Notes: a model not told the origin generated them from the letters alone. A stretch of 64,000 nt of DNA from Leptospiraceae bacterium (GCA_040217195.1 JAVJNR010000004.1:448001-512000), one strand, 5' to 3'; positions 38,949 through 54,986 are shown, counted from the first letter of the stretch. A program made the numbers and translations.

Positions 38949-39887
38949 ATGAAATTCAGAAGTGCATTTATGATTCTGCTTATGGCCGGGCTTTCCTGCA
39001 CCAGCGCTGCAAAGGAAGAGACCCCACCCGAGCCAGAACAATCCGGCCCTCTCCGAGGTATTTACCTGGATGTAAATCGCGGCCGGAACCTGGACCTGGT
39101 CCGAGGACTGATTGAGCGTGGCAAGCCCGTTGGATTGAACTATGTAGTGGTGGATGTTCAACCCTATGCCTCCTATCGATTCCTCCTGAATCCAGAGGTG
39201 ATGCAATACCTGAAATCCCAGGGCATCTATGTAACCGGGCGCGTGGTCTGTTTTCAGGATGGGCTGACCAGAAAAGCCAGCGATGCGAAATTAAAGCAAC
39301 TGTACGAACTGATCGAAAAGACGGCGGCCGCTGGATTCGATGAAGTGCAACTGGATTACATTCGATTTGCAGATGACTACACTCCCTATTCGCGCCAGCA
39401 GAAGTACGATTACATTGAAGAAATTCTAAAAGAGGCTCGAGCCATCACTGACAGACATAATGCCAAACTGGGAGCCGATGTCTTTGGTCGAGTTGTATAT
39501 AACCGGGATGACTTGATTGGCCAGAAACTGGAAAACTTTGCCAAATATGTAGATGTAATCTATCCCATGTTATACCCCAGCCATTTTACCGGGGATAGAA
39601 AAAGACTATCCAATCCTGGATTTACGATCCATGAAGGAACCACAAAGGGCCTGGATCGATTGAAAGGTACTCGCAGTACCGTGCAACCCTTCATTCAAGC
39701 CTTCGGATACAATGTTGGCTATGCTCGAATGTCTTACAAGGATTACATCATTGATCAAATTCTGGCCGCAGAGAAAACCGATGCTAGAGGTTGGGTAGCA
39801 TGGAATGCAAGAGCGGAATACGAAACCCTCTTTCAAGCGCTGGAAGAAATAGAAAAAGGTCAAGTAAACTCTTCGCCAGAAGGGTAG
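38949..39887 (+). CDS. Putative glycoside hydrolase lipoprotein (DUF4015-like TIM barrel)
   Basis: Lipobox GLSC, then RGIY, RVVCFQD, GFDEVQLDYIRF and PMLYPSHF. Confidence 0.8.
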   Translation: MKFRSAFMILLMAGLSCTSAAKEETPPEPEQSGPLRGIYLDVNRGRNLDLVRGLIERGKPVGLNYVVVDVQPYASYRFLLNPEVMQYLKSQGIYVTGRVVCFQDGLTRKASDAKLKQLYELIEKTAAAGFDEVQLDYIRFADDYTPYSRQQKYDYIEEILKEARAITDRHNAKLGADVFGRVVYNRDDLIGQKLENFAKYVDVIYPMLYPSHFTGDRKRLSNPGFTIHEGTTKGLDRLKGTRSTVQPFIQAFGYNVGYARMSYKDYIIDQILAAEKTDARGWVAWNARAEYETLFQALEEIEKGQVNSSPEG

Positions 39888-41968
39888 TACTACTTTTGTT
39901 TGCCGCCCTCCCCTGGGCGGTCCTATCCTGTAACTCACCGCACTTTGCCGGAGCCGGTCCCATTTTTCTGGACGACCAGGTAGAGTATCTCCGGGCCGCC
40001 ACCGCATTTCGCTACACCCTGCTGCCTGAAAGCGCCAGCGTTAAAGATGCACTGGCAGATGAGAATTATCAGCCCATCCGATCGGCCTATCCGAACTTTG
40101 GAATCCAGACCGAGACTCTGTGGCTGAGTGCAGAAGTTCACATAGAAACAGATCATCCATTTATTCTAGAGGTAGCATCGCCCCGCTTACGTAAGATAGA
40201 ATTTTTTCAGATCCAGGATGGCAGGATTCTATCCACCGCCAGCGGTACCGAAGCTTCACTGAGAGATCATCCATATTTTCGATTTCCACTGCTAAAAACC
40301 GGAAATGCCAGCCGGGTCTTGATTCGCCTGATTTCTGACGATACTCTTACACTTCCTGTCTATCTCTGGAAAGATGATAAGATGCAGAAAGTGGATTTGC
40401 TTCGCCACTTTGGCTTTGGGGCTTTCTTCGGATTGATGCTTTCACTTAGTATTTACAACTTCTTCATCTTCTTCTCCACCGGCGACCGGGCCTATTTGTA
40501 CTATGTTTTATACATCCTGGGCTTTGGGATTTTCCTATCCGTATTATACGGCTATCAATCATATTTCTTTCCTCTGTCCAGTTATCGATACCAGGCCATG
40601 ATGGCCCCTGTATTTAGCGTAATTACATCCATGTTTGCGCTACTGTTCAGTCAGGGGTTCCTGCTGATTCGCAGCTACTCCCGCATTTTATTTCGTACAG
40701 GCCTGGTGATTCTGACCATTGGGGCATTGTTGCTCTTAATTATACCGTTTCTACATGCCAGCCTATCTATTGTTCTGGCCAACATCTATCCGGTGCTTTC
40801 AGTCATTCTTGTAACAACCAACATTGCCTACTCCTGGAAATCTGGCTTCAGACCTGCCCGGTATTTTGCCCTGGCCTGGTCATTTCTGCTGATTAGTGTT
40901 GTATATTTTGTTCTCGGAAACATGGGCGTGGTCCCCGGAAGCTTTCTAAGTCATTACGGAAGTATATTTGGAGCCTCTCTGGAGGCCACCCTGCTAAGTC
41001 TGGCCCTTGGATATAGAATTAACGATTTGCGCGAAAGACAGGAAGCAGCCCAGAAACAGATACTCGAAGAACAGCAAAAAGCCCTGGCATTGCAGCAGCA
41101 GTATACGGAAAGCTTCCGACGATTTGTTCCGGATCAGTTTTTGCATTATCTGAAGAAAGAAAGCATCCTGGAAGTGGCTCGCGGAGACTCCATCCAAAGT
41201 GAAATGACCGTACTATTTTCCGATTTGAGGGATTTCACCGAATTCTCCGAACAGGCCGGCGAAGAGCTGGTATTCCATTTTCTAAATCTTTACCTGGAAC
41301 AAATGCAACCTATCATCCAGAAGCATGGGGGTTTCATAGATAAGTTCATTGGAGATGCCATCATGGCTCTATTCCCGGATCCCCAAAAAGCGGTTCTTGC
41401 TTCGGTAGATATGGTAAAAGAATTACGGTCAATGCAATCCAGCTCATCGTCCCAGGATGATAGAACCCTCAACAATACTCTTATGGAATCAGGATGTGGT
41501 CTGCACCATGGTTCATTGATGCTGGGAACCGTTGGCTCAAGCGACAGACTGGAAACCACAGTCATTGGCGATACAGTGAATATGGCCAGCCGGCTGGAAT
41601 CTTTGAACAAATCCCTGGGTACAAAGATTCTGATTTCCAGAACTGTTCAGTCAGGTATTGCCCCGGATTCGACCCTGCACGGTGTAATGAGGCAAATAGG
41701 CACCTGGCATATCCGAGGAAAGGCGGAGGCTCAGGCATTATTTGAAGTGTACGGTGCTGATCCAGAGTTGCTGCAGGATTTTAAAACCAGCAGCCGGGAC
41801 GAAGTGGAGTCTGTGGCATCGATGCTGCCGCAAAGCAAGAATGATCCGGGGCTCAAAAGGGCCCTTAAAGAAAGACTGGAGGCCCATCTAGATACAGTGC
41901 CAGAAGGCTATCAAGATGGAGCAGCCAGGTACTTGATGAAACAGTTGGAGCCGCCATCGGGAAGCTAA
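39791..41968 (+). CDS. 7TM-DISM class III adenylate/guanylate cyclase
   Basis: DISM domain and 7TM (YNFFIFFSTGDRAYLYY), then catalytic LFSDLRDFT, DKFIGDAIMA and TVIGDTVNMASRLE. The Lys/Thr pair suggests ATP. True start is probably near 39890. Confidence 0.92.
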   Translation: MGSMECKSGIRNPLSSAGRNRKRSSKLFARRVVLLLFAALPWAVLSCNSPHFAGAGPIFLDDQVEYLRAATAFRYTLLPESASVKDALADENYQPIRSAYPNFGIQTETLWLSAEVHIETDHPFILEVASPRLRKIEFFQIQDGRILSTASGTEASLRDHPYFRFPLLKTGNASRVLIRLISDDTLTLPVYLWKDDKMQKVDLLRHFGFGAFFGLMLSLSIYNFFIFFSTGDRAYLYYVLYILGFGIFLSVLYGYQSYFFPLSSYRYQAMMAPVFSVITSMFALLFSQGFLLIRSYSRILFRTGLVILTIGALLLLIIPFLHASLSIVLANIYPVLSVILVTTNIAYSWKSGFRPARYFALAWSFLLISVVYFVLGNMGVVPGSFLSHYGSIFGASLEATLLSLALGYRINDLRERQEAAQKQILEEQQKALALQQQYTESFRRFVPDQFLHYLKKESILEVARGDSIQSEMTVLFSDLRDFTEFSEQAGEELVFHFLNLYLEQMQPIIQKHGGFIDKFIGDAIMALFPDPQKAVLASVDMVKELRSMQSSSSSQDDRTLNNTLMESGCGLHHGSLMLGTVGSSDRLETTVIGDTVNMASRLESLNKSLGTKILISRTVQSGIAPDSTLHGVMRQIGTWHIRGKAEAQALFEVYGADPELLQDFKTSSRDEVESVASMLPQSKNDPGLKRALKERLEAHLDTVPEGYQDGAARYLMKQLEPPSGS

Positions 41969-43569
41969 AGTGTTTCGGTTACTTCTTCGGTGGGAGCTGT
42001 AAAGGAACGATTGATGGCATCTATATAAGCTCGGGCCGAGGCTTCCACAATATCGGTACTGGTTGCTTTGCCGGCAAAGCTTCTACCAGCAATCTTCAGC
42101 AGGACGCTGGCCACGGCCTGGGCATCCCTTCCTTCGCTCAATGGTTGAATGCGAAACCGATCCACTTTGATTTCCAATCCTGTGAGTCGTTCCAGTACAT
42201 TGTAGATTGCATCCACCGGTCCATCGCCGCAGGCAGCATCTGTAATGGCCCGGGGTTCCTCTGGTTTTTCATGATCGATTAGTTTGACAGTAGCTGTAGG
42301 TACTGTGCCGCTCCCTGCGGAGACATGAAGACTTCCCAGTTCGTAGCGCTGAAATTCCTGCTCGGCCTGCGTATCATTCACGAGAGACAGTATGTCTTCA
42401 TCGTAAACTTCCTTTTTCTTATCTGCCAGATCCAGAAAGCGATTCCAGACCTGCTGAAACTCCTCTTCTTCAAGCACATAACCCAGACGGACCAATCGGT
42501 CTTTAAATGCATGTCTTCCGCTATGACGGCCAAGCACCATTCGGTTGCTTTCCAGGCCCACGGATTCTGGAGTCATGATTTCGTAGGTCAGTCGATTCTT
42601 CAGCACACCATCCTGGTGTATTCCACTCTCATGTGCGAAAGCATTGTCACCAACAATGGCTTTATTGGGCTGAACGCTCATTCCAGTAACCTGGCGGATC
42701 AGCCGACTGGAACGGATAATTTCCTCTGTATGGATATTCGTGTGTAGCCCGTAGAATTCACCACGAGTACGTAGCGCCATAGCCACCTCTTCCATGGCCG
42801 TGTTGCCGGCCCTTTCGCCAATGCCATTAATCGTACATTCGATTTGCCTGGCACCATTCTTAACAGCCGCAAGACTATTCGCAGTGGCCATGCCCAGATC
42901 ATTATGACAGTGAGCACTGAATCGAATGTTTTGTGAATCCGGAACATGTTTAATCAGATGAGCGAAAAGTGCTCCGTATTCTTCGGGCGTGGTATATCCA
43001 ACTGTATCGGGAATATTTATGGTAGTGGCTCCTGCCTCCACGACCCTGGAAACAAGCTCTACAAGAAAATCCCATTCACTTCTTGTGGCATCTTCCGGTG
43101 AGAATTCCACATCTTCCACCAGATCTCGGGCCTGCTTCACTGCTTCAACAGCCAGCTCCAGCACTTCATGGGGCTCCTTTCCCAGCTTGTATTTCATATG
43201 AATAGGACTGGATGCCAGAAAGGTATGTATTCTTTTTCTACGAGCATCTTTCAAAGCGTCCGCAGCGATTTCAATATCCCGGGGCACAGCACGGGCCAAT
43301 GCTGCTATAATGGGGGATTCCAGTTCGCGCGCCACTCGCTGGACTGCTCGAAACTGCACCGGACTGGATACTGGAAACCCAGCCTCGATAACATCCACTC
43401 CCAGAGCTTCCAGGCGGTGAGCCACTTCCAGCTTTTGATCCTCGGTCATGGCAGCACCGGGACATTGCTCTCCGTCTCTTAGAGTCGTATCGAATATATA
43501 TACCAGCCCGGCATCGTTTTGCCGGGCGATGGAATTTTCCAATGTGCCCTGTGGTTCTGAGTTGCTCAT
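41965..43569 (-). CDS. leuA: 2-isopropylmalate synthase
   Basis: DTTLRDGEQ, HCHNDLG, GERAGN, AHESGIHQDG, and a regulatory domain with GDGPVDA. Confidence 0.97.
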   Translation of the reverse strand: MSNSEPQGTLENSIARQNDAGLVYIFDTTLRDGEQCPGAAMTEDQKLEVAHRLEALGVDVIEAGFPVSSPVQFRAVQRVARELESPIIAALARAVPRDIEIAADALKDARRKRIHTFLASSPIHMKYKLGKEPHEVLELAVEAVKQARDLVEDVEFSPEDATRSEWDFLVELVSRVVEAGATTINIPDTVGYTTPEEYGALFAHLIKHVPDSQNIRFSAHCHNDLGMATANSLAAVKNGARQIECTINGIGERAGNTAMEEVAMALRTRGEFYGLHTNIHTEEIIRSSRLIRQVTGMSVQPNKAIVGDNAFAHESGIHQDGVLKNRLTYEIMTPESVGLESNRMVLGRHSGRHAFKDRLVRLGYVLEEEEFQQVWNRFLDLADKKKEVYDEDILSLVNDTQAEQEFQRYELGSLHVSAGSGTVPTATVKLIDHEKPEEPRAITDAACGDGPVDAIYNVLERLTGLEIKVDRFRIQPLSEGRDAQAVASVLLKIAGRSFAGKATSTDIVEASARAYIDAINRSFTAPTEEVTETL

Positions 43570-43694
43570 CTCTAGGACAAATTAACGGCCGGTTTTCGCC
43601 TCGCAAAACCTTTTTTAGCCTGGAAATGGATCACAACGAGGTACTTAAGCATACATTTACTTGTCAAATATCCGCCATGGTACCCTGATTAGTC

Positions 43695-44429
43695 ATGGCC
43701 GATTCTACAGATCCATTTGAACGGTTTTCGGCCAATCTGTATCTCCAGGAATACTATGGCAGTATTGGAGAGGAGAATCAATTCATACTGGATTTTCTTC
43801 ATGAGACCTATGAATCCTGGAAGCCAGTTATTGTGCAGGATATTGGCGGCGGGCCTACCATCTACCAGCTTATCAGCGCTTCCAGAGTCTGCAGAGAAAT
43901 CGAAATCTTCGAATATCTGGAGGAAAACCGCCAGGCTGTGCAGAGCTGGCGTGAGCAATCTTCCGAAAGCTTCAACTGGACTGAATATTTCCAGGCTGTG
44001 GCCCTCAGGGAGAACCAGGCGACCGTGGATGTGGAAAATCGCCTGAGGCAGAAGATTCGTTCCGTGCAAACGATTGATCTGTTCGATCCTTCAGAATTGC
44101 CTCATACACCGGCCAGCGATGGACTCCCAAATGCAATTTCTTCGCATTTTTGTGTAGAATCCATTACCAGCGATGAAACTATGTTTTGCCGCGCCTGGGA
44201 CAATCTTACCTCACTGGTCCGAAAAGATGATTATTTGATTATGAGCCTGCTTAAGAATGCCCATCAATACCGGGCCGGCTCCTTTCATTTTCCCGCATTT
44301 CCTGTTGAAGAAATCTCCCTAAATGCTCGTCTTAAAGAAAAGGGCTTTCGAGAAATTACAATGCAAACCGTTCCTGCCGAACATGGACGGGACTACGAAG
44401 GTATAATCTGTGTCCGTGCAATTCGATAA
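43695..44429 (+). CDS. NNMT/PNMT/TEMT(INMT)-family SAM-dependent N-methyltransferase
   Basis: F...YLQEYY, DIGGGPTIYQLISA, Y..EN...V..W...FNW, RLRQKI..V...D, S.FCVE and Y.AG..F: colinear with the animal NNMT/PNMT signature blocks. Confidence 0.88.
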   Translation: MADSTDPFERFSANLYLQEYYGSIGEENQFILDFLHETYESWKPVIVQDIGGGPTIYQLISASRVCREIEIFEYLEENRQAVQSWREQSSESFNWTEYFQAVALRENQATVDVENRLRQKIRSVQTIDLFDPSELPHTPASDGLPNAISSHFCVESITSDETMFCRAWDNLTSLVRKDDYLIMSLLKNAHQYRAGSFHFPAFPVEEISLNARLKEKGFREITMQTVPAEHGRDYEGIICVRAIR

Positions 44430-45912
44430 ATCAGAATTCGAAGAAAGGCAAAGCAGGAAGCCAATTCTGGAAGCACTGCGGCGACATCATGATGAAGGGA
44501 TAGTTCCGTTTCATGTTCCGGGGCATAAGTATGGTGCAGGGAATCCATTGATGACCGAATATTTTGGTCATGCCATGCTTCAGTCAGATCTTAATGCCAT
44601 GAGCGATATTGATGATTTGGCCAATCCGGTAAGTGTTATTAAAGAAGCTCAGGACCTGACTGCGGAAGCCTTTGGAGCGGACCATGCATACTTCTTAATC
44701 AATGGAACCACTTCAGGAATTCATGCGATGATTCTGTCTGCCCTGGGACAGAGAGAGAGAATCATTGTTCCCAGAGATGGACATAAATCCATGTATTCTG
44801 CTTTAATCCTTTCTGGCGCCAGTCCTATCTTTATACCTCCGGCTATTCATCCGGAGTATGGATTTCCACTTCCTCCAGACCCAGCAGACATTGAGTCCAT
44901 TTTCTCCGAAGTAAATCAAATTCAATCCATAGAGATCAAGGGATTGTTTTTGATCAACCCTTCCTACTATGGTCTGGCCCCCAGGTTAGATACAATATCA
45001 TCCATTGCCAGCAGAGAGAATGTTGCCCTTCTGGTCGATGAAGCTCATGGTAGTCATTTCTATTTCCATCCTGATTTGCCCAGCACGGCCATGGAAGTAG
45101 GCGCATCTGCCAGCGCTTTAAGCATGCATAAGACCGGCGGCTCCCTTACCCAGGCATCGCTTCTACTGAGACAGGGAAATAGAATTAGCAATGATACAAT
45201 ACGAAACATACTGGATATTCTTCGCACTTCATCATCCTCCTATCTATTAATGAGCAGTCTCGATACGGCTCGCTCTCAGCTTGCCCTGGAAGGAGAATCT
45301 TTGCTGGAGAAAACTCTGGAGCTAAGCCGAAGAGCCAGAAAGGAGATCAACGAAATTCCAGGATTGATAGCTCCTGGAGTTGAGGAGTTGAAGCCGGATC
45401 AAAGAATTGGTGGCTTCGATGAAACCAGACTGACAATTTGCGTCAATGGACTTGGATTGAATGGCTTCGATGTTGAAAGGATTTTGCGAAGCGATTATCG
45501 TATTCAAATCGAAATGGCTGATTTCCACACCGTGGTTGCAATTGTTACTTTTGGAGATACCTGGCAGAGACTGGAAACTTTGATTCGTGCATTAAAAGAT
45601 CTGGCCGGTCGATCCTCGGGACGAAGCAAATTAACCAGGTTTCCGGACCATCCCGGTGTTCCTCCAAGAGTCATGAACCCGAGAGATGCCTTCTATTCTA
45701 GAAAAACGAGAGTGGACCTTGAACAATCTGATGGCAGTATTTGCGGAGAGATGATTATGGCTTATCCTCCAGGTATTCCGGTAATTTGTCCCGGGGAGGT
45801 TGTTACCCGGGAAATCATCGAGCATGTGCAGGCACTTAAAAAGGCCGGCGCTTCACTTCAGGGCATGGCCGATATTACCGCCAGTCGGGTCCAAATTGTA
45901 GAGGGCTCTTAA
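44410..45912 (+). CDS. Orn/Lys/Arg decarboxylase (fold-type I PLP, SpeA/YaaO-like, no wing domain)
   Basis: FHVPGHK, LINGTTSG, NPSYYG, VDEAHG, PLP lysine in SMHKT, SSSYLLMSSLD and YPPGIPVICPGE. Confidence 0.92.
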   Translation: MSVQFDKSEFEERQSRKPILEALRRHHDEGIVPFHVPGHKYGAGNPLMTEYFGHAMLQSDLNAMSDIDDLANPVSVIKEAQDLTAEAFGADHAYFLINGTTSGIHAMILSALGQRERIIVPRDGHKSMYSALILSGASPIFIPPAIHPEYGFPLPPDPADIESIFSEVNQIQSIEIKGLFLINPSYYGLAPRLDTISSIASRENVALLVDEAHGSHFYFHPDLPSTAMEVGASASALSMHKTGGSLTQASLLLRQGNRISNDTIRNILDILRTSSSSYLLMSSLDTARSQLALEGESLLEKTLELSRRARKEINEIPGLIAPGVEELKPDQRIGGFDETRLTICVNGLGLNGFDVERILRSDYRIQIEMADFHTVVAIVTFGDTWQRLETLIRALKDLAGRSSGRSKLTRFPDHPGVPPRVMNPRDAFYSRKTRVDLEQSDGSICGEMIMAYPPGIPVICPGEVVTREIIEHVQALKKAGASLQGMADITASRVQIVEGS

Positions 45913-46080
45913 GGCCTTCCAGTCAGGCCTGAGAGAATAAGGAACCCTAACTTCATTTCAGGCTGTTTCAGCGTAACAATTCCGGGCGAAATAAGATATT
46001 CAATGGAAGAAAAGGAAATCACTCGATGAAAAGATAGATTGAGAAATGGCGTTCTGATTGGCTACAAAGGCGGGATCGCA

Positions 46081-47913
46081 TCAGCTATCGTTGGATGCAA
46101 AGACAGGATCTTCATGGTCCGTGCGCGAGTACTTCTGACATCGTTCCAGATAAATCAGTGCCGCTCTATCTTCTGGCACCGCTTTATGAATGGCCATAAA
46201 GGTTTGCTCGGCTTCATCGAATCTCTTTTTATGGTATAACATTACTCCGTGCTCGAAATTCTCTTTCTGAGCGACCTTTCGCTCCACCAATTCCGGAGTA
46301 TCTCCATCCAGGACTTCATAGACCGGTACCGACTTGGTCTTTCCTTTTACTCTAACCTTACCCATGAACCGATAATTCACTTCCATGTCTTCCAGGGTCT
46401 GCCGTAGAGTAACTTCGCTGAGTATGATATGAGCACCCATTTTCTTGGTAAGACCTTCAAGCCTGCTGGCCAGATTCACAGCATCTGCGATGACAGTGCT
46501 TTCCATCCGTTCTTCTTCTCCGATGGTTCCCAGCATCAACACCCCGGTATGTAGACCCACACCAATATCGATGGGCATATATCCTTTCTCTTTTCTATAT
46601 ACATTGAAATCCAGAAGCTCCAGTCGCATATTGATGGCCGCTTCCACAGCACTTCTGGGAGTGTCTGGAAAAAGAGCCATGATCGCATCGCCAATGTATT
46701 TATCTATGAATCCGCGGGAATTTCGAATAACCGGTCCTACTCTTTTCAAATAGGAGTTCAGAAAGTTAAAGTTCTCCGAAGGTCTCAGAGATTCGGAAAT
46801 TGTAGTAAAGGAACGAATATCGGAAAAAAGAACCGTCATCTCTTTCTGGATTTGATCGCCCAGGCGAATATTCAATATACTTTCCTGACCCAGGTGCTGC
46901 AAAAACTCCCTGGGAACGAACCTGTAGTAGGAAGCGTTCAATGCTTGAAGATAATCTGAATAAGCACGAATCTCTTCAACCATGCTATTGAAAGTATCAG
47001 CCAGAACTCCCAATTCATCGTTGGTCTTAACATCTACCCTGGTTTCGTAATCTCGATCCTTTACTCGCAGTGCTCCATCCTGGAGTTTTCCGATGGGCCT
47101 GGACATTAGATTCGCAAGTATGTAAGAAAACACAAGAGAAAGAATCAGGGCCGCAACAACGCTAAAGACGCAAATGTAGAATAGTTCATTTACCTTGTTT
47201 ACTTCGCCGCTGGCATCGTAGTCCAGACCAAGGATTGCAATGGTTTCTCCAGTTTCATCCTTGATAGGCACAGCCGCTGAAAGCCACATCCCCCATCGGT
47301 CTGCCACGAAGTTCTCCTCCGCTGCAGGCTCTCCATTTATGGCTTTAATAAAGGATTGTTGTTTAACACCGTACAGGTTTCCAATTGGATTTTCCTCACC
47401 CTCGGTGTCGTAATCAGCATCAGCAAGAAATTTAAGGATTCGATGATCCGGACTATGCTTCACAGCTACGTACATGTACGCATATTTGATATTAGAATCC
47501 TGTACCTTGCCTTCCTGGGAAGGATCCACTCGTACGGTACTTTTCTTTATGGAACGAAGAATGGCAACCAGGCGCTGGAACTTCTTACCGTTCATCAGTT
47601 CCTGAGCTACTTCCGGACTGAGAGATTCTCGTGTATCTCCCTTGGCCACCTTCATGATTTCAGCCTTGGGACGAATATTCTTTTCTTTCAGGGTTTTTGA
47701 GAGATCCCGGATATAATCCAGGTCTTCCGGGGTCATGCTGTTAACAGAAGTTCGAGCGATGTCCATTAGACGACCGCCCATCACTTCCAGGATCATAGTT
47801 CTGGTACTGGTATAAATTAAATAAGCAGTCACACCCGTTGCAGTCACAGCCAGGGTGGAAACTACAAGCATCAGCTTCCAACGGAATGGAAACTTTCCGC
47901 GACCTGCTTTCAC
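46081..47913 (-). CDS. Cache-like sensor - HAMP - class III adenylate cyclase
   Basis: Two TMs around a Cache-type domain (DRWGMWLSAAVPIKD...GLD), HAMP (DELGVLADTFNSM), then LFSDIRSFT, DKYIGDAIMA and STVIADAVNLASRLE. Confidence 0.94.
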   Translation of the reverse strand: MKAGRGKFPFRWKLMLVVSTLAVTATGVTAYLIYTSTRTMILEVMGGRLMDIARTSVNSMTPEDLDYIRDLSKTLKEKNIRPKAEIMKVAKGDTRESLSPEVAQELMNGKKFQRLVAILRSIKKSTVRVDPSQEGKVQDSNIKYAYMYVAVKHSPDHRILKFLADADYDTEGEENPIGNLYGVKQQSFIKAINGEPAAEENFVADRWGMWLSAAVPIKDETGETIAILGLDYDASGEVNKVNELFYICVFSVVAALILSLVFSYILANLMSRPIGKLQDGALRVKDRDYETRVDVKTNDELGVLADTFNSMVEEIRAYSDYLQALNASYYRFVPREFLQHLGQESILNIRLGDQIQKEMTVLFSDIRSFTTISESLRPSENFNFLNSYLKRVGPVIRNSRGFIDKYIGDAIMALFPDTPRSAVEAAINMRLELLDFNVYRKEKGYMPIDIGVGLHTGVLMLGTIGEEERMESTVIADAVNLASRLEGLTKKMGAHIILSEVTLRQTLEDMEVNYRFMGKVRVKGKTKSVPVYEVLDGDTPELVERKVAQKENFEHGVMLYHKKRFDEAEQTFMAIHKAVPEDRAALIYLERCQKYSRTDHEDPVFASNDS

Positions 47914-49364
47914 ACATGCCCCCGAATATAAAGCACTATGCCATCCTCGCCTGGCAATGTAATGGCCCGGATTTGCTCATGCGCGGATTTTGCTGATCCT
48001 CTTTCCATATGTCTTAAGGCCGTTTCAATGCGCTGACCAAAAGCTTCGGTCAGTGTATGAAATACCAGACCGCTTTCAGGAACAGAGCCAAACTCTTCTC
48101 TTACAGCTTCGGCTCCCTTGTGCTCTGAATCCAGCAGATACATTTTTCCATGTGCTGGATTGGGTTGCAATTCTACGGAAATGAGCTTTCGAATGGGAAA
48201 TATCTCAAAAGCAGAATTCAGCAAATCTCTGATTTCCTGTTTTTTCCGGATTCGACTGTCCACATAACGGCAAAGAGCGGATGCGATTAAATCATCTGGC
48301 TCGGAGGAATCGTGCACCCAGCCCATCATGAAGAAATGGCCGGATTCCAGGGGAATGTGCTGGTAAAAGTGTCCGGGATTCTGGGTTCTTAACGGGCCCA
48401 TTTCTGCCTGCATCCAGTCTTCGTCCAGGGATACCTTCTCATAGGCATTGCTACGAAACGTAGACATCAAATCGTCGGTATTTCGAAATTGCTCCTGTTC
48501 GATCAGTGTTTTTCTGATTCGATCCAGGGTATCATAGAGAAGACTGGTCATGGTCCGAAACGTATTACCCAGATCGTTAAACTCTTCAATCAATCCGCTA
48601 CGAATCCGCACATCGTAATCTCCCTCAGCGGCCCGACTGGCTGCCTCGGTTAGATTGCCCAGTGTGCGCGACAGAATGCTGGCCAGAAATAAAGCTATAA
48701 CTACACCGGCCAGAGCGGCAACCAGCACTCCAATGCCAATCTCTACAATGCTGGCACGCATTTCATTCTTGATCCATGAGCCATCGTACTGGACACCAAG
48801 AATGGCAAAGTCCTCACCCCGGGTATTCTTGAGGATGGCCAGAGCCCACAGATTCTCGGGCGAATTTAAGCTAACGTCAAAATCAGCAATATAAACCCCT
48901 TCGCCACGTAGCTCACCCATTACTCCCGTCTGTCGAGTCAATTCCGTAACCCTGGCGCCTATGTCTTCAAAGCCTTCCGGAGCATAGGAGAATGCTACTT
49001 TTCTGCTCTCCGGGTCTAGAATAACAACTCCGGGCGCACCGGCACTGGACGTTTCATCTGGCCAGAAAAACGTGGAGATAGCACTGGTAGTTACCTGTGG
49101 CTTCCGTAAGTCGAACAGTTGTTGAACCCGATTCAAATCTCGTCTCAACAGTTCCGGCTGAATAGAGGCCAGACCTGGAGCGCCGGAAAGACGCTCCCTT
49201 GCTTCCAGGAATTCTCGCAGGGCCACTGCAAACGTGCGAATCTGTTCTTTGCCGCCGGATTCCAGTGTGCTTGTATCAGCGGCCCATTTTAGACCACCAA
49301 TCAATAGACCGGCCACCAGAAATACAGGCACCAGGAATAGAAGATTCTGTCCGCGAATAGTCAA
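47910..49364 (-). CDS. Membrane sensor with HAMP and degenerate SpoIIE/PP2C-like tail
   Basis: TM-periplasmic-TM-HAMP (EEFNDLGNTFRTM). The tail blocks PGHFYQ, MMGWVHD, VFHTLTEA and EDGIVLYIR resemble PP2C motifs without the Asp ligands. Confidence 0.7.
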   Translation of the reverse strand: MTIRGQNLLFLVPVFLVAGLLIGGLKWAADTSTLESGGKEQIRTFAVALREFLEARERLSGAPGLASIQPELLRRDLNRVQQLFDLRKPQVTTSAISTFFWPDETSSAGAPGVVILDPESRKVAFSYAPEGFEDIGARVTELTRQTGVMGELRGEGVYIADFDVSLNSPENLWALAILKNTRGEDFAILGVQYDGSWIKNEMRASIVEIGIGVLVAALAGVVIALFLASILSRTLGNLTEAASRAAEGDYDVRIRSGLIEEFNDLGNTFRTMTSLLYDTLDRIRKTLIEQEQFRNTDDLMSTFRSNAYEKVSLDEDWMQAEMGPLRTQNPGHFYQHIPLESGHFFMMGWVHDSSEPDDLIASALCRYVDSRIRKKQEIRDLLNSAFEIFPIRKLISVELQPNPAHGKMYLLDSEHKGAEAVREEFGSVPESGLVFHTLTEAFGQRIETALRHMERGSAKSAHEQIRAITLPGEDGIVLYIRGHV

Positions 49365-49750
49365 GAGCGAACCTCCTGACGAGCCTGAAGAGCCACAATA
49401 CCTTGCGCTATTTCTGGTAATTCATACATGGTTCTAAAGAAATATCCCTTTTCTAGAAGCAAACAGGTAGCTCCTTTGTCGGCGGCATAGATGCTTTCGC
49501 CCAATTCATGGTCAAATAACAGGGACTGGATTCCAAGAATTAGACCAGGAGATTTTCCGGAAGCATCGCGAAAGCCACCATTGAGACAGATCAGTAGCCT
49601 CTTCATGCTACGACCTGCTTCCAGCACCAGCTCATTTGGCTCGTAACTTCGCACAATGCAAACCTCTGCAAGGGCTGCCAGTTCTCCTTCGCGCAACCGA
49701 GAAAAGGGAAAAATATGCTGTAATGCTATGATTCTATCTGCCAGATTCAC
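49361..49750 (-). CDS. Stand-alone cyclic-nucleotide-binding (Crp-like) domain protein, degenerate
   Basis: IFPFSRL..GEL..LA....RSYEPNELVLEAG...LLI..G and terminal YF...PEIA pattern. The GE...R cassette is not conserved. Confidence 0.78.
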   Translation of the reverse strand: MNLADRIIALQHIFPFSRLREGELAALAEVCIVRSYEPNELVLEAGRSMKRLLICLNGGFRDASGKSPGLILGIQSLLFDHELGESIYAADKGATCLLLEKGYFFRTMYELPEIAQGIVALQARQEVRS

Positions 49751-51777
49751 AGGATCACCTCCAGATACATGGCATCGGCAGGAGAATCGACGGCAAGTTC
49801 GCTCAACCTGGGCACTGGATTTCCCTGCAGTCTGGAAGTTTCGTCCGAATCATTTCCAGAAACAATGTAGAGCGCCTTCAGACCTTTTAGGTCCGGCTTA
49901 AGGTTTCCTGGCTCAACCATGGTTCTTTTTGCCGAACCGTTGGAAGTGACTGGATACAGATTTAGAGTCGCCGACGATTGTATTTCAATCTCCCCTGTAG
50001 TCTTATGGATCAGGACTATGAAATCCAATTCTTTACCAACAAGTGGCTCCATTGATTCCATGTATTGATCCGGCATCTGCTGCAGTAGCCTTCGGCTTAT
50101 GCGGAAAACATCGCTATGGACTCTGGTGGTTTCCAGTTTATCCTCTCTATCTGCAATGACCCAGACGGATAGAAAATGGGAATCTTCAAAAAGGCCATGG
50201 GTATGTTTTCTGGCTTTATCCAGAATATCCACCGCACTCTTATGTTTCATGAAGCTTCGAACCAGGTTTCCCAGTTCATTTCTTCTACGCTTTTCTTCCA
50301 GTCGAAAGTTTTCGCCTGTTAATGATGTCACAGTTTCCTGCAGAGATCGGCTCAGTCTGGTAAGACTTCCGGAAAGATGTGTGAGCTCTGCAGGATTTTC
50401 TACATGGATTTCATTTCCGAATCCGCCAGCTGCAACCTGAAGTGCGGATTGCTTCAATTCATAGATAGGCCTTGTGAGTCGTTCCGTAATAAAGTAGGCG
50501 ATTACCAGACCAGCAACCAGGGCCACCACACCAATGATTACAACCTGCAACAATGCCAGACGAGTGGCACTTTCAATTATATCGATATTAACATCTGCAC
50601 CTGCATAAGCCACTGCATCCCCCTGCTCATTGAGGATTGGCACATAGGAAGATTTCAAGAGTCCCCAGTCTTCCCAGTCTGCAATGGGCGAAAGATAGAT
50701 TTCTCTTTTTAGAATTACATCTCTTATATCGTCCTGAGCTTCATTACTGTCCGCAACGCCCACATTCGAATGGATATCGCTCTGGGTGGAATCCAGGGCA
50801 TAATTGATATGAGTTTCCCGGTCCACAAGGATGGCCGAATAAAGAAAAGTAATCCCTGTATTCTTTCTTACCCGAATCATCGGATCTACCAGGTTTCCAT
50901 AAATGGTCTGAGCCTCCTGGGGCCCAAAACCGATTCCGGTTAATTCCCGAATCGCACCAGATTCCATGTTAATCGTAATCAGAGCTGCAGTGGATACTCC
51001 ATAATAGGTTCTGCTCAGCGGATCATATACAATGGAGAATACACCAAAACGATACGGCTCCCCATTCTTTGTTAACTTAATGGACTTGCTAATCTTGCCA
51101 TCTTCTGGATTCAGAAAAACTATCTGCCGATTGTTTGTGTCTGTAGCCACCAGGCTTTTTCCGTCTGCAGCCACCGATAATCCTGTCAGTGGAGATTCCA
51201 GAGTAACCACTTCTTCCGGTTCGCCTGCCTTTCCGTTCACAATAGGCACCCGAATCAATCGCTCGCCGGCGCAATATAGAGCACCATCGATGTAGCCCAC
51301 TCCAACGCAATAATCATCAATGCCTGCGAAGGTCTCTGTTTTACCTGTTCGCGGATCAATGGAAACGATGGATGCATCTCCGTTTTCATCCTCCGGGCTG
51401 GCTGCGTAAATCATTCCATTTGCAGACGTAATATCGGTTGTATAGTAAGGCTCTGGATCCAGAGGCCTGGTTTGAGTAAATCGTGCAGGAGGATTCAGTA
51501 GAAGCAGATCCGGAGCAACCGCATACCTTGCATACATCTTACCACCATCAATGGTAAGACCTCGAATCTGGGTTAGCTGTACAATCTGATCATGGTCTTC
51601 GCCGCTTACAAAAGAGGCCACAACAGTGCTGGCTGCCAGGAGTTTCTGATCAAACGTTAGAAGAATCTTTCTATAAAGATCGGAATAAACGACTCGCCCG
51701 AGAAAAATAGTAAGAGCGACCAGAGCAACAGTGATCACTACAAAGAAGAAAGACCTTAGTTTGAGTTGCAGCCTCAT
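49747..51777 (-). CDS. Membrane sensor: Cache-like domain with beta-propeller-like insert, HAMP, divergent cytoplasmic tail
   Basis: TM1, short beta repeats (IVSIDPRTG, IVFLNPEDG, LITINMESG), DWGLLKSSYVPILNEQG...GAD, TM2 and HAMP (ELTHLSGSL). Confidence 0.72.
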   Translation of the reverse strand: MRLQLKLRSFFFVVITVALVALTIFLGRVVYSDLYRKILLTFDQKLLAASTVVASFVSGEDHDQIVQLTQIRGLTIDGGKMYARYAVAPDLLLLNPPARFTQTRPLDPEPYYTTDITSANGMIYAASPEDENGDASIVSIDPRTGKTETFAGIDDYCVGVGYIDGALYCAGERLIRVPIVNGKAGEPEEVVTLESPLTGLSVAADGKSLVATDTNNRQIVFLNPEDGKISKSIKLTKNGEPYRFGVFSIVYDPLSRTYYGVSTAALITINMESGAIRELTGIGFGPQEAQTIYGNLVDPMIRVRKNTGITFLYSAILVDRETHINYALDSTQSDIHSNVGVADSNEAQDDIRDVILKREIYLSPIADWEDWGLLKSSYVPILNEQGDAVAYAGADVNIDIIESATRLALLQVVIIGVVALVAGLVIAYFITERLTRPIYELKQSALQVAAGGFGNEIHVENPAELTHLSGSLTRLSRSLQETVTSLTGENFRLEEKRRRNELGNLVRSFMKHKSAVDILDKARKHTHGLFEDSHFLSVWVIADREDKLETTRVHSDVFRISRRLLQQMPDQYMESMEPLVGKELDFIVLIHKTTGEIEIQSSATLNLYPVTSNGSAKRTMVEPGNLKPDLKGLKALYIVSGNDSDETSRLQGNPVPRLSELAVDSPADAMYLEVIL

Positions 51778-54700
51778 TTGCTCAGCGCCTCCAGAATTGC
51801 AATGGCAGCTTGAGGATCGCTTTCAAGCATCTCCTCCAGGGAGCTACGAGGAATTTCCAGGTAGGAACCGGACTTCATGGTAACCGTGGCACGACGGGTA
51901 ATTTGATCTTCCGAGCCTCTTGCATTTCCGTTCTCATCCGCACCCGGAACAGAAAGATGCCCGGGACCTGTGCCCAGGGTTTCGAGCATTTCATAGCCGG
52001 TATCTTTGCCGTACCTGGAACCGCTACTGACTTCAAATTTTCCCTGCACTGCCAGAAACAGTGCTTCAGCTGGATCACCTGATTTATATAGAGTTGTATT
52101 GTCTGCCACTCTGTACGTTGCTTCCACGGCCGGGCTACGTAGATTCAATACAGAAAGGCCTCCGAGTACTGGCTCAGATTTTAAAGCCTGCAGGCGCTCC
52201 ACTGGATTCATGGGATGGTCCGGTCCTTCGCTCAACGATAGATAAACACTTCTTGCAATGGGGCCGCTGAATGGCTCCGAGCGATAGATTCTATCCAGGG
52301 ATTTTTCTCCCCGGGACTCATACAGAGCCTGACTGGCCAGAGCTTTCTCCAGGTCGTTCTTACTCTTGAGTGCCTTTTCCAGTATTGCCTGCGCCGAGTC
52401 CCGGGAACCCGAGAAGTTTCTGTAATAGAACTGGATCTTCTCTTCCAGGGGCCGCGAATCCACCAGAGGCAAAATATTTCTAAAGACCGTTCTATGGACA
52501 CTTTGCTCCAGGGTCTCGATGGAGTCCCCGCGCATTCTGGGATTGGCAGATCTTAAAGAAGCAGCGATTTGCTCATAGTCCGGGATTCTGCCAGCCAGCG
52601 CAAGTAGCTCCAGAACAAATTCCAGAGTCACCTGCTGCATATCCTGGTAGTACTGACCCAGCAACTGAATGGAAGGCGAAGTTTCTTCGCTGTGCTGCAA
52701 CAAATAGGCCCGGTCAAGGTAAAGATAGGAAGTCTGAATCTCAGTATTTACGATTTCAGCCACCATGGAATCCAGCTGAGCAAAAGAAAGATGCGAAAGG
52801 GTTCTAGCAGCCAGGGACCTGGATCGATAGGGCAAAGTATCATTGTCCAGAACGGCCACAATGGCCGGTACTGATTTCAGTCCCAGAGACCTGGCAAACA
52901 TCTCCACCCGTCGACGCTGGCGGGGATTGAACTCCTGAGCCATGCGAAACAATGGAAATAGACTCTCTGCATCCTGGATCCTTTCCAGGATTTCAATTCC
53001 TCGAAAGCGATCCTCTTCCGATGCATGCTCCATAGTTCTTAGAATTCGTGGAATTAATCGACTGGAGGCAGGGCCTACAAGCATTCGAATGCTTTCCAGG
53101 GCCCGGCTTCGCATCTCTGCAGAGGGATCATCCAGATAGGCGACCAGAGAATGGGCATAACTTTCTTTATTTGTAAATCCAAAGGCTGAGATGGCACTGG
53201 CCTTTTCTTCTTCGCTACCGTCCAATAATGTGCGAAGCTCATCCAGAGCCATAAAGTTATCTTGCAGATCCCTGCTGTTCCATAGAGCTACCACAGCGGC
53301 TTCTCTATCTCCGGCAGAATCTGAAGCCAGTAGTGGCATGGCCTTTCGGGAAGGAATTAGACCATGACTTCCCAGTTCCCTCAATACCGATACAGGAAAG
53401 GATTGCTGCTCCTGTTCTGCCCATTGAATGACTCTCTGGACTACAAAGCTGTCCTCTTCTTCCAGGATTTCAGCCAGGATTTCGGATCGTTCTGTCTGTC
53501 GCCTGGGATCTTCAGAAAATGAAAGAATCAATGATTCCAGAGCGGCGGCTTTCCTTCTAAGACCCAGAAACCTTATGGAGCTGAAGTGGGCTGCGGAATC
53601 AGGATTAAGAGAATCCAGCTGAAAGCTTTCCAGATCTGCTTCGCTGAACTTCTCTCTAAGTTCCTTGCGTGAAAGGGAGAAATTCAGCCATTCCTTTCGC
53701 AGGTTTTCCATAATGGCCGTGGGATAGCGATTACGAAGCAGGAATGCAACTCCCATATGCAAGAATGCCAGACCCAGACCAATAGCCGCCAGGTTTTCCA
53801 GCGAAAACCAGTCCACGGAACCGGCCATGGTGGAGCCAGCCAGAAGCAGTATAAAACCCGCCACCGCGGTGGCCAGAGGATCCATCAAACCTTCGGTAAA
53901 AGTTCGAATCTCCTTCTTTACTTCGGAAGGAGAGGCATTAAACAGAAAATTCCAGTTATTCGCATCGAAGGATAAATAGAAACCATGATAGGCCAGAAAG
54001 CCAAAAATCGCAGCTTTTTCGCCGCCTTCAAAATAGAAAAACACAAAGGCAATTAGATAGATGGCCGGTTGCACCAGCAGGGCGTTCTTCACCCCAATGA
54101 GCACAATGATTCTATTAAAGAGAAAGAAGTTGATCACTACACTGACCAGGTTCACTACAAGAAAAAGCTGACCAAACTTGGTGGCCAATTGCTGCTCTGT
54201 AGCGTTAGCAGCGAAGATATCCAGATACTGAAACTCGGTAAATGTTGTAAGAATTAGAGTTCCAAACATTACCAGATTGATGAGCAATACGTAGGAAGAT
54301 TTCCCAGCGGTTTTCAGAACTTTGCTATTTTGTTCCAGGAAGCCTTCATTGTTTTGCTCCACATCGTCATCGATCTTTCGCTCCGTCCTTCGCAGATGCA
54401 TGGCTACGAAAATGGACAACACCGCCATCAAAGGCCAGAGCAGAAAAATCCAATGACTTCCAATAACGCCTGAGAAGGCAGTAACCAGACCACCACCCAG
54501 AGCGCTACCAATGGCCAGGCCTCCGCCAAAGATCGGGTACAGTCGTTTCGCATCTAGAATATCAAAGTATCCATCCACCAGGTTCCAGAACAATGTAAAC
54601 AGAGAGACCAGCCAGATGTAAGCGTACAGACGAAGAAGGTACAGTACGATACTGGATTCGCCCAGAGCGGGAAACCATCCACTCAATGCAACGAAGAAGA

Positions 54701-54986
54701 ATAATCCACCGCCAATCAAAATGTACTGAATCAAGTCGAATACTCGATCAATGCCCATACGAGCCGTGGAAAAAGATAAGAACGGAACAAAAAGCACCAT
54801 TACCACCGGCGCAATCACGTATACGATGGGCAGACTGGATGCTCCCAGACGAGAAAGGAAAACCGAATCAGCAATGGAAAGCCCTACTGCCACCCCGGCC
54901 TGCAGCAGAGCAGCCAGCAACGTGAAGAGCAAAAGTCTTCGCCCTTCTCCTGGATATACCTTGAATAGTCGCTGAATAAAGGCCAA
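51774..54986 (-). CDS. NTT/TLC (ATP/ADP translocase-like MFS) - HEAT repeats - cNMP-binding domain fusion
   Basis: About 12 TMs with VYPGE...DSVFLSRLG..SLP and FWNLVDGYFDILDAKRLYP. HEAT-like repeats (LDDPSAEMRSRALE; RMRGDSIETLE) and a C-terminal CNB-like domain (LYKSGDPAEALFL..QG...RRATV). Confidence 0.85.
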   Translation of the reverse strand: MAFIQRLFKVYPGEGRRLLLFTLLAALLQAGVAVGLSIADSVFLSRLGASSLPIVYVIAPVVMVLFVPFLSFSTARMGIDRVFDLIQYILIGGGLFFFVALSGWFPALGESSIVLYLLRLYAYIWLVSLFTLFWNLVDGYFDILDAKRLYPIFGGGLAIGSALGGGLVTAFSGVIGSHWIFLLWPLMAVLSIFVAMHLRRTERKIDDDVEQNNEGFLEQNSKVLKTAGKSSYVLLINLVMFGTLILTTFTEFQYLDIFAANATEQQLATKFGQLFLVVNLVSVVINFFLFNRIIVLIGVKNALLVQPAIYLIAFVFFYFEGGEKAAIFGFLAYHGFYLSFDANNWNFLFNASPSEVKKEIRTFTEGLMDPLATAVAGFILLLAGSTMAGSVDWFSLENLAAIGLGLAFLHMGVAFLLRNRYPTAIMENLRKEWLNFSLSRKELREKFSEADLESFQLDSLNPDSAAHFSSIRFLGLRRKAAALESLILSFSEDPRRQTERSEILAEILEEEDSFVVQRVIQWAEQEQQSFPVSVLRELGSHGLIPSRKAMPLLASDSAGDREAAVVALWNSRDLQDNFMALDELRTLLDGSEEEKASAISAFGFTNKESYAHSLVAYLDDPSAEMRSRALESIRMLVGPASSRLIPRILRTMEHASEEDRFRGIEILERIQDAESLFPLFRMAQEFNPRQRRRVEMFARSLGLKSVPAIVAVLDNDTLPYRSRSLAARTLSHLSFAQLDSMVAEIVNTEIQTSYLYLDRAYLLQHSEETSPSIQLLGQYYQDMQQVTLEFVLELLALAGRIPDYEQIAASLRSANPRMRGDSIETLEQSVHRTVFRNILPLVDSRPLEEKIQFYYRNFSGSRDSAQAILEKALKSKNDLEKALASQALYESRGEKSLDRIYRSEPFSGPIARSVYLSLSEGPDHPMNPVERLQALKSEPVLGGLSVLNLRSPAVEATYRVADNTTLYKSGDPAEALFLAVQGKFEVSSGSRYGKDTGYEMLETLGTGPGHLSVPGADENGNARGSEDQITRRATVTMKSGSYLEIPRSSLEEMLESDPQAAIAILEALSK

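Follow-up and report, generated by a model that had tools for sequence, protein, structure and literature searches.

Which amine is produced, and then methylated, when a bacterium sets a methyltransferase gene directly against a gene for a basic-amino-acid decarboxylase? In the current analysis, we address this question for a two-gene unit of the uncultured Leptospira relative Leptospiraceae bacterium (GCA_040217195.1 JAVJNR010000004.1:448001-512000), which lies on the plus strand of a stretch of 64,000 nucleotides (the window) from the host genome G000. The unit encodes a methyltransferase of the NNMT/PNMT/INMT fold that depends on S-adenosylmethionine (SAM) and is proposed to be an agmatine N-methyltransferase (43695..44429; 244 amino acids, ATG start), followed by an ancestral, wing-less AAT-fold decarboxylase that depends on pyridoxal phosphate (PLP) and is probably an arginine decarboxylase (44410..45912; 500 amino acids, GTG start). 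Judged from sequence, the pair is a real, conserved, and previously uncharacterised two-step amine pathway, which in biochemical terms is a prediction. We consider it moderately probable that the two genes form a dedicated branch leading from arginine through agmatine to N-methylated agmatine: the decarboxylase, with PLP at Lys241, would turn L-arginine into agmatine, and the co-translated methyltransferase would use SAM to methylate agmatine once or several times, most likely at the primary amine. The underlying logic, decarboxylation followed by methylation, is that of adrenaline synthesis.

In a profile search, the methyltransferase matches PF01234 over residues 3-240 (124 bits against a cut-off of 25), the only Pfam family to match it at E <= 0.01. 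Its AlphaFold model (pLDDT 95.7) has a class I Rossmann fold with the NNMT/PNMT lid and resembles human NNMT and PNMT at TM-scores of 0.83-0.87 (E about 1e-24, 25-29% identity). In the alignment, F182, E185, and Y222 of PNMT correspond to F152, E155, and Y192, and PNMT E219 corresponds to Ala189, a position occupied by Ala in 73% of homologues. We take E185 and E219 to be the amine-site carboxylates of PNMT, the latter presumably binding the amine; the combination of the two that would mark a PNMT proper is not found here. Across 173 homologues, Y16, E19, Y20, Y21, E27, the SAM motif G51-T55, E155, and Y234 are 82-100% conserved, and the acids E19, E27, and E155 are retained in 84-92%. Such an acidic, aromatic site suits a cationic acceptor, provided that these residues line the pocket as the alignment suggests. 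The wider family comprises 798 cluster representatives at E <= 1e-30, some of them eukaryotic, with the database labels 'hypothetical' or 'nicotinamide N-methyltransferase'; the nearest named relatives come from metagenome-assembled genomes titled Leptospiraceae, Leptonemataceae, or Spirochaetaceae. The gene is present in 11/36 genomes of the host family, and searches found it in 0/24 genomes of the order's other family and, at E <= 1e-10, in 0/400 further genomes of the phylum. Two genomes carry a longer form, in which the methyltransferase is fused to a C-terminal region of ~250 amino acids with no Pfam match (L024:8530-10023 in G033 and L025:8570-10072 in G007).

The decarboxylase matches PF01276 (212 bits) together with PF03711, has no N-terminal REC wing, and keeps its PLP motifs intact (DEAH at 210, and HK with Lys241). 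These are the features of the ancestral AAT fold, namely both Pfam domains in a wing-less enzyme of about 490 amino acids with the PLP lysine. An acid-inducible decarboxylase/antiporter system (AdiA, CadA, or SpeF) was rejected on the length of 500 amino acids, the missing wing, scores far under the NCBIfam cut-offs, and the lack of an APC neighbour. Sequence alone cannot tell the amine that the decarboxylase makes, because there are ornithine and lysine decarboxylases, too, among the ancestral AAT enzymes; genome context and co-occurrence suggest that its substrate is probably L-arginine.

The two genes meet in a compact junction (44397..44429, plus strand), where a Shine-Dalgarno-like GAAGG at 44397-44401, 8 nt 5' of the GTG start, precedes a 20-nt overlap of the two open reading frames (ORFs); the overlap had been reported in the initial annotation. 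The motif and the overlap suggest translational coupling, and AGG(A) and GTG recur at the equivalent place in 4/4 orthologues inspected, where the bases are also constrained by the methyltransferase coding sequence. The genes may also be co-transcribed: one 283-nt contig from metatranscriptome X1 spans the junction, aligning to 44342-44622 with a single mismatch, although it is not counted as proof because the contigs are unstranded and DNA carry-over is possible. Metatranscriptomes X2 and X3 yielded no match to the gene pair, a promoter/terminator scan of 43400-46200 was uninformative (2 and 2 sites versus 3.7 and 2.8 expected), and the GC profile of the locus gave no island signal.

Both genes occur in 9/36 genomes of the host family and lie within 1 kb of each other in 8/9. 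The eight linked pairs are arranged in tandem in five genomes of the same genus, divergently in G009 and G022, and as a single ORF in G018 (L023). Fusion of the methyltransferase to an AAT decarboxylase is also seen in P0038 and P0141, and other fusions join it to a pyruvoyl arginine decarboxylase (PvlArgDC, PF01862; P0135), to a SpeD-like enzyme (PF02675; L112 and P0101), or, as triple fusions, to both a SpeD-like and a deoxyhypusine-synthase-like domain (P0175 and P0176); the search for long-form fusions scored 8000 candidates of 596-2000 amino acids. The initial annotation had read the unit as a decarboxylate-then-N-methylate cassette, a reading supported by the conservation of the pair in the host family, by the fusions, and by the pairing of the methyltransferase with three further unrelated decarboxylase folds.

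Among the loci retrieved with the methyltransferase alignment, a decarboxylase gene is found near the methyltransferase at 27/55 genome loci within 2 kb and 29/55 within 8 kb, and at 28/43 and 29/43 metagenome loci (many of them short), respectively; some of the counted loci are close kin, four belong to the host genus, and L053 and L067 were counted on loci-derived profiles only. Random windows of the host genome contain a decarboxylase in 0.4% (2 kb) or 1.2% (8 kb) of cases, which corresponds to a roughly hundred-fold enrichment. The partners within 2 kb at genome loci are AAT (6), PvlArgDC (9), SpeD-like (10), and alanine-racemase-fold (2) enzymes. PvlArgDC, within 2 kb at 9/55 genome loci and 20/43 metagenome loci, is the commonest partner overall, and a full biosynthetic SpeA lies directly upstream of the methyltransferase in L031. 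Most of the partners appear to belong to arginine decarboxylase families. According to PMC8503589, arginine decarboxylase arose from four folds, and the same four are represented among the methyltransferase partners. In a FastTree phylogeny of 84 methyltransferases, which left out 11 near-duplicate loci and loci with under 190 aligned residues, the partner types are scattered over the tree. In Mycobacterium szulgai (L056:5346-8750), an AAT decarboxylase, a GNAT-like ORF, and the methyltransferase form a single run, and an ORF resembling this GNAT-like one also follows the methyltransferase in three Patescibacteria loci (L060, L064, and L066). The viral scan yielded a sole locus, a phage-encoded pair of methyltransferase and PvlArgDC on a viral contig (L263:4001-5232).

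Of agmatine, cadaverine, and putrescine, agmatine is the most likely amine, as judged from the polyamine routes of linked and unlinked genomes (58-97% complete). Twelve decarboxylases of the family that are unlinked to a methyltransferase form one clade (support 100/99). A strong agmatine deiminase (E <= 3e-74) is present in 12/12 genomes of this clade, and a CASDH- or NspC-like gene stands beside the unlinked decarboxylase in 5/7 regions mapped. By its gene content, the clade follows the arginine-agmatine-putrescine route, and the deiminase in all twelve genomes marks the family's decarboxylase as arginine-specific. In the linked genomes, by contrast, a strong deiminase was found in 0/10, with weak matches only in G004 (5.5e-22) and G061 (9e-33); no arginase/agmatinase was found in the 27 genomes searched, nor any agmatine-to-putrescine enzyme in the host genome (93.7% complete). 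Two SpeD homologues are present in 10/10 linked genomes versus 0/12 unlinked ones, and in the second copy the succession of Gln, Thr, Phe, and Tyr is that described for the ornithine decarboxylase SpeDC in PMC10407285. With this SpeDC-type copy, the linked genomes can probably make putrescine without the AAT decarboxylase, which would leave agmatine with no other detected outlet. Because no route from agmatine to putrescine was detected in these genomes, the pair would represent a dedicated branch towards N-methylated agmatine.

A second coupling of decarboxylase and methyltransferase exists in the same cells. Outside the window (G000:C1:118095-118997; L159), the gene that comes immediately after a bona fide SpeD joins a SET domain to a pyruvoyl decarboxylase of the SpeDC type, and the SET and SpeDC parts occur together in 12 other genomes with two SpeD matches, one of which has an in-frame stop. 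Given this fusion, the SpeDC product may have a fate of its own.

Several points weigh against N-methylated agmatine as the product. With Ala189 in place of E219, the amine site, as predicted from the alignment, differs from that of PNMT. According to PMC8503589, ancestral AAT-fold enzymes may act on ornithine or lysine, may be bifunctional, or may have no polyamine role. All 13 linked or fused decarboxylases fall outside the unlinked housekeeping clade on longer branches, so that their specificity may have shifted; their own monophyly is unsupported in this tree, which carries long-branch warnings and was built without characterised aADC/aODC sequences. The 10-versus-12 split between linked and unlinked genomes draws on few genera, with 6/10 linked genomes from one genus, and does not constitute independent evidence. 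Linkage is also incomplete: methyltransferase and decarboxylase lie 760 kb apart in G031, the two genomes with the longer methyltransferase have no AAT decarboxylase, and no decarboxylase lies within 8 kb of the methyltransferase at 26/55 genome loci. The alanine-racemase-fold partners are partly LysA-like (L032 and L084; one of the two such partners among the 55 genome loci) or NspC-like (L113), the SpeD-like partners can be typed only as apparently lacking the SpeDC residues and not as arginine enzymes, and the decarboxylase profiles behind the counts were built from these loci, with a Pfam check on representatives only.

The divergence of the linked decarboxylases would also fit an enzyme that has shifted to lysine or ornithine, in which case the product would be N-methyl-cadaverine or N-methyl-putrescine. 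The existence of ancestral ornithine, lysine, and ornithine/lysine decarboxylases favours such a shift, as do the LysA-like partners at a few loci, and the lack of a strong agmatine deiminase in linked genomes is equally compatible with a non-arginine enzyme. We nevertheless regard another diamine as quite unlikely, since PvlArgDC is the commonest partner, SpeA occupies the upstream position in L031, and a SpeDC-type enzyme presumably supplies putrescine in the linked genomes already.

Alternatively, the acceptor could be a longer agmatine-derived polyamine (aminopropyl- or aminobutyl-agmatine, spermidine, or homospermidine), or methylation could take place on the guanidino group, possibly of arginine before its decarboxylation. 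The two triple fusions with a deoxyhypusine-synthase-like domain speak for a longer acceptor, and so do a methyltransferase gene within a cluster of deoxyhypusine synthase (DS), CN-hydrolase, agmatine deiminase, and SpeD-like genes (L088) and the two SpeE homologues of the host genome; on the other hand, most clusters consist of decarboxylase and methyltransferase alone, with or without a small transporter, and no DS-family gene was found in the host genome. Guanidino methylation would set the enzyme apart from the characterised family members, which to our knowledge methylate amine, pyridine, or thioether atoms and not guanidino groups. In its favour, N-methylagmatine is a building block of saskemycin, and these units are proposed to arise from guanidino-methylated arginine (PMC12637814). 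Taken together, we find these other acceptors and sites unlikely. The pairing might finally be regulatory or incidental, with the methyltransferase acting on nicotinamide, an aromatic amine, or a thioether beside an ordinary polyamine decarboxylase. That NNMT and PNMT are the closest solved structures, and that no decarboxylase lies close by at about half of the loci, would agree with this explanation; it becomes very improbable in the face of repeated fusion to three unrelated decarboxylase folds, the enrichment described above, and a host genome without a detected enzyme that would carry agmatine on to putrescine.

If the pair does make N-methylated agmatine, its surroundings raise the further question of what the product is for. 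The initial annotation had correctly placed the pair between a divergent leuA (41965..43569, minus strand; NF002086 778 bits; context only) and a convergent cyclase gene (46081..47913, minus strand), with no agmatinase, SpeE, or APC antiporter alongside (a scan of the 8 neighbouring genes found none). It had also called the pair isolated, which does not hold, since homologues of the convergent operon adjoin the methyltransferase or decarboxylase in other genera and phyla, in differing gene orders; this link was overlooked, as was the characterised bacterial family member GntF. Among 109 loci compared, leuA stands beside the methyltransferase in same-genus loci only, and a functional link to leuA was rejected as limited to the host genus. 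Just past leuA, at 39791-41968, lies a second membrane cyclase (7TM-DISM), and the pair is thus flanked by two cyclases.

The convergent operon consists of five genes on the minus strand. Its first gene encodes an NTT/TLC-HEAT-cNMP fusion of 1070 amino acids, a candidate transporter regulated by cyclic AMP (cAMP) (51774..54986; weak matches to PF03219, PF13646, and PF00027, all under cut-off). It is followed by a 676-amino-acid membrane protein with an extracellular repeat region, a Cache-like motif, and HAMP (49747..51777; PF00672, weak DUF6923, and cross-matches to the cyclase sensor domain), by a 129-amino-acid protein (49361..49750) that has no Pfam match itself and whose homologues in L039 and L032 match the cNMP-binding domain PF00027 (E 4.5e-6 and 9.5e-4), and by a 484-amino-acid membrane HAMP protein (47910..49364; PF00672) with same-order homologues in L039, L032, G031, and G088. 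The last gene encodes the cyclase, a candidate receptor in which a single Cache/PDC-fold sensor (about 47170-47817), enclosed by two transmembrane segments, precedes HAMP (PF00672) and a class III cyclase domain (PF00211). Its modelled ectodomain is a single Cache/PDC module (pLDDT 87) with the CitA sensor as best match (Z 13.6, rmsd 2.0, 128 aligned), and sCache_3 leads the Atlas search at 0.92-0.93.

Parts of this operon recur beside the methyltransferase. The cyclase adjoins it in G009, G018, G022, G061, and G062, and directly follows it in G009, G022, and G061. In a Bdellovibrionota genome, the methyltransferase directly follows the whole operon on the same strand and has no decarboxylase within 8 kb, and in a Cloacimonetes genome the methyltransferase and a LysA-like decarboxylase are followed by four operon genes without the cyclase. 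Strong NTT orthologues (E <= 1e-60) were found in 7/36 family genomes, all 7 among the 11 with the methyltransferase. A DxNxDG-type insert is absent from all 7 methyltransferase-adjacent sensors and from the sensors of G031 and G088, and present in 21/23 other paralogues; monophyly of the linked sensors was not established (support 83). A distant NTT-HEAT-cNMP paralogue also lies directly behind the decarboxylase in 9/12 unlinked-clade genomes, and the position of such paralogues behind an arginine-type decarboxylase (L249-L251 and L255-L257) hints at polyamine-related cargo.

In other lineages, the methyltransferase stands beside histidine kinases and an SMR-like membrane protein of 121 amino acids. 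The latter, a four-helix protein next to PvlArgDC and the methyltransferase (L044:3023-3388 and 13 similar ORFs), is a candidate exporter of SMR/DMT type (Atlas 0.92, PF00893 in 28% of cluster members, TM-score 0.65). A kinase, cyclase, or 7TM gene occurs within 4 kb at 28/55 genome loci, and a small transporter within 1.5 kb at 15/55, both counts being made without a background control.

That the operon accompanies the methyltransferase, in Bdellovibrionota and Cloacimonetes as well as here, suggests that the cell may respond via cAMP to an amine signal of its own making. From this gene linkage, we tentatively raise the possibility, which we doubt more than we credit, that N-methylated agmatine represents a class of self-made, secreted bacterial signals read via Cache-cyclase and cAMP. 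A two-enzyme synthase, comprising any arginine decarboxylase and a member of the methyltransferase family, would be wired to interchangeable receivers: parts of the NTT-HEAT-cNMP/Cache-HAMP-cyclase operon in Leptospirales, Bdellovibrionota, and Cloacimonetes, and, in Chloroflexota, Deltaproteobacteria, and Patescibacteria, histidine kinases that are often accompanied by small SMR-like transporters. The adjacent Cache-cyclase would then bind the methylated amine and alter cAMP. Several findings speak against such a role. Genome G088 lacks the methyltransferase and carries all five genes of the NTT/Cache/cyclase operon, with a radical SAM gene next in line (L264:8184-17878); in Cloacimonetes, the cyclase is missing from the operon; members of the sensor family occur in 22/23 of the family genomes tested, the host having four; and a search of the host genome for a small exporter, in the form of an SMR- or PQ-like gene, found none.

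The proposed pathway gives a testable function to the bacterial NNMT-type methyltransferase family. If the proposal is true, bacterial polyamine metabolism would gain a branch so far unrecognised, one designed like trace-amine synthesis in animals and starting from arginine. Should the Cache-cyclase respond to the product, it would provide a ligand for an orphan sensor family that is expanded in these spirochaetes, as well as a context for the uncharacterised NTT-HEAT-cNMP proteins. No bacterial agmatine N-methyltransferase was found in the literature searched, which covered few subscription journals; what the present analysis contributes is the partner of the AAT fold, the split between genomes with deiminase and those with SpeDC, and the link to the cyclase-NTT operon.

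Compared to NNMT, PNMT, and INMT (PF01234; PDB 7SOK, 1HNN, and 2A14), the methyltransferase shares the fold, the glycine-rich SAM motif, and the equivalents of F182, E185, and Y222, and differs in the Ala at PNMT E219, in the family-specific E19 and Y234, and in being partnered, within a bacterial operon, by a decarboxylase of basic amino acids. The family also has a bacterial member in the guanitoxin pathway, GntF, which N-methylates an arginine-derived intermediate (PMC10673588), and the methyltransferase scores above the cut-off of the GntF model NF041360 (77.7 versus 60). This label is unspecific, every other distant family member scanned passing or nearing 60, and the flanks here are leuA, the decarboxylase, and the cyclase operon rather than a gnt-type cluster (the search for gnt genes being confined to these flanks); assignment to GntF or a toxin pathway was therefore rejected on gene context. 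The SCO2525-family methyltransferase is a distant homologue in a different gene context, and its model NF040568 falls below cut-off (62.3 versus 240, E 4.5e-17). Plant putrescine N-methyltransferase likewise N-methylates a diamine derived by decarboxylation, and it derives from spermidine synthase, as stated in PMC10407285; the distinction from it drawn in the initial annotation is sustained by the absence of a PF01564 match in the methyltransferase.

Ancestral AAT decarboxylases (Bacillus SpeA type; aADC/aODC/aLDC) resemble the present enzyme in their length of about 490-500 amino acids, the absence of the wing, and the PLP motifs (PMC8503589). Known members feed spermidine synthesis via agmatinase or deiminase, whereas here neither was found and the partner of the gene, by coupling or by fusion, is a methyltransferase. 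For NTT-HEAT-cNBD fusions, PMC5381601 reports no function and no NTT in Spirochaetes; their layout is the same as that of the operon's first gene, and cAMP control is suggested there. The amine-sensing dCache_1AM receptors (PMC10589655) belong to a different Cache class; the host sensor, which by its model and structure search appears to be a single Cache module with an insertion rather than a dCache_1 domain, resembles them in its predicted Cache fold, in which Asp and aromatic residues are conserved.

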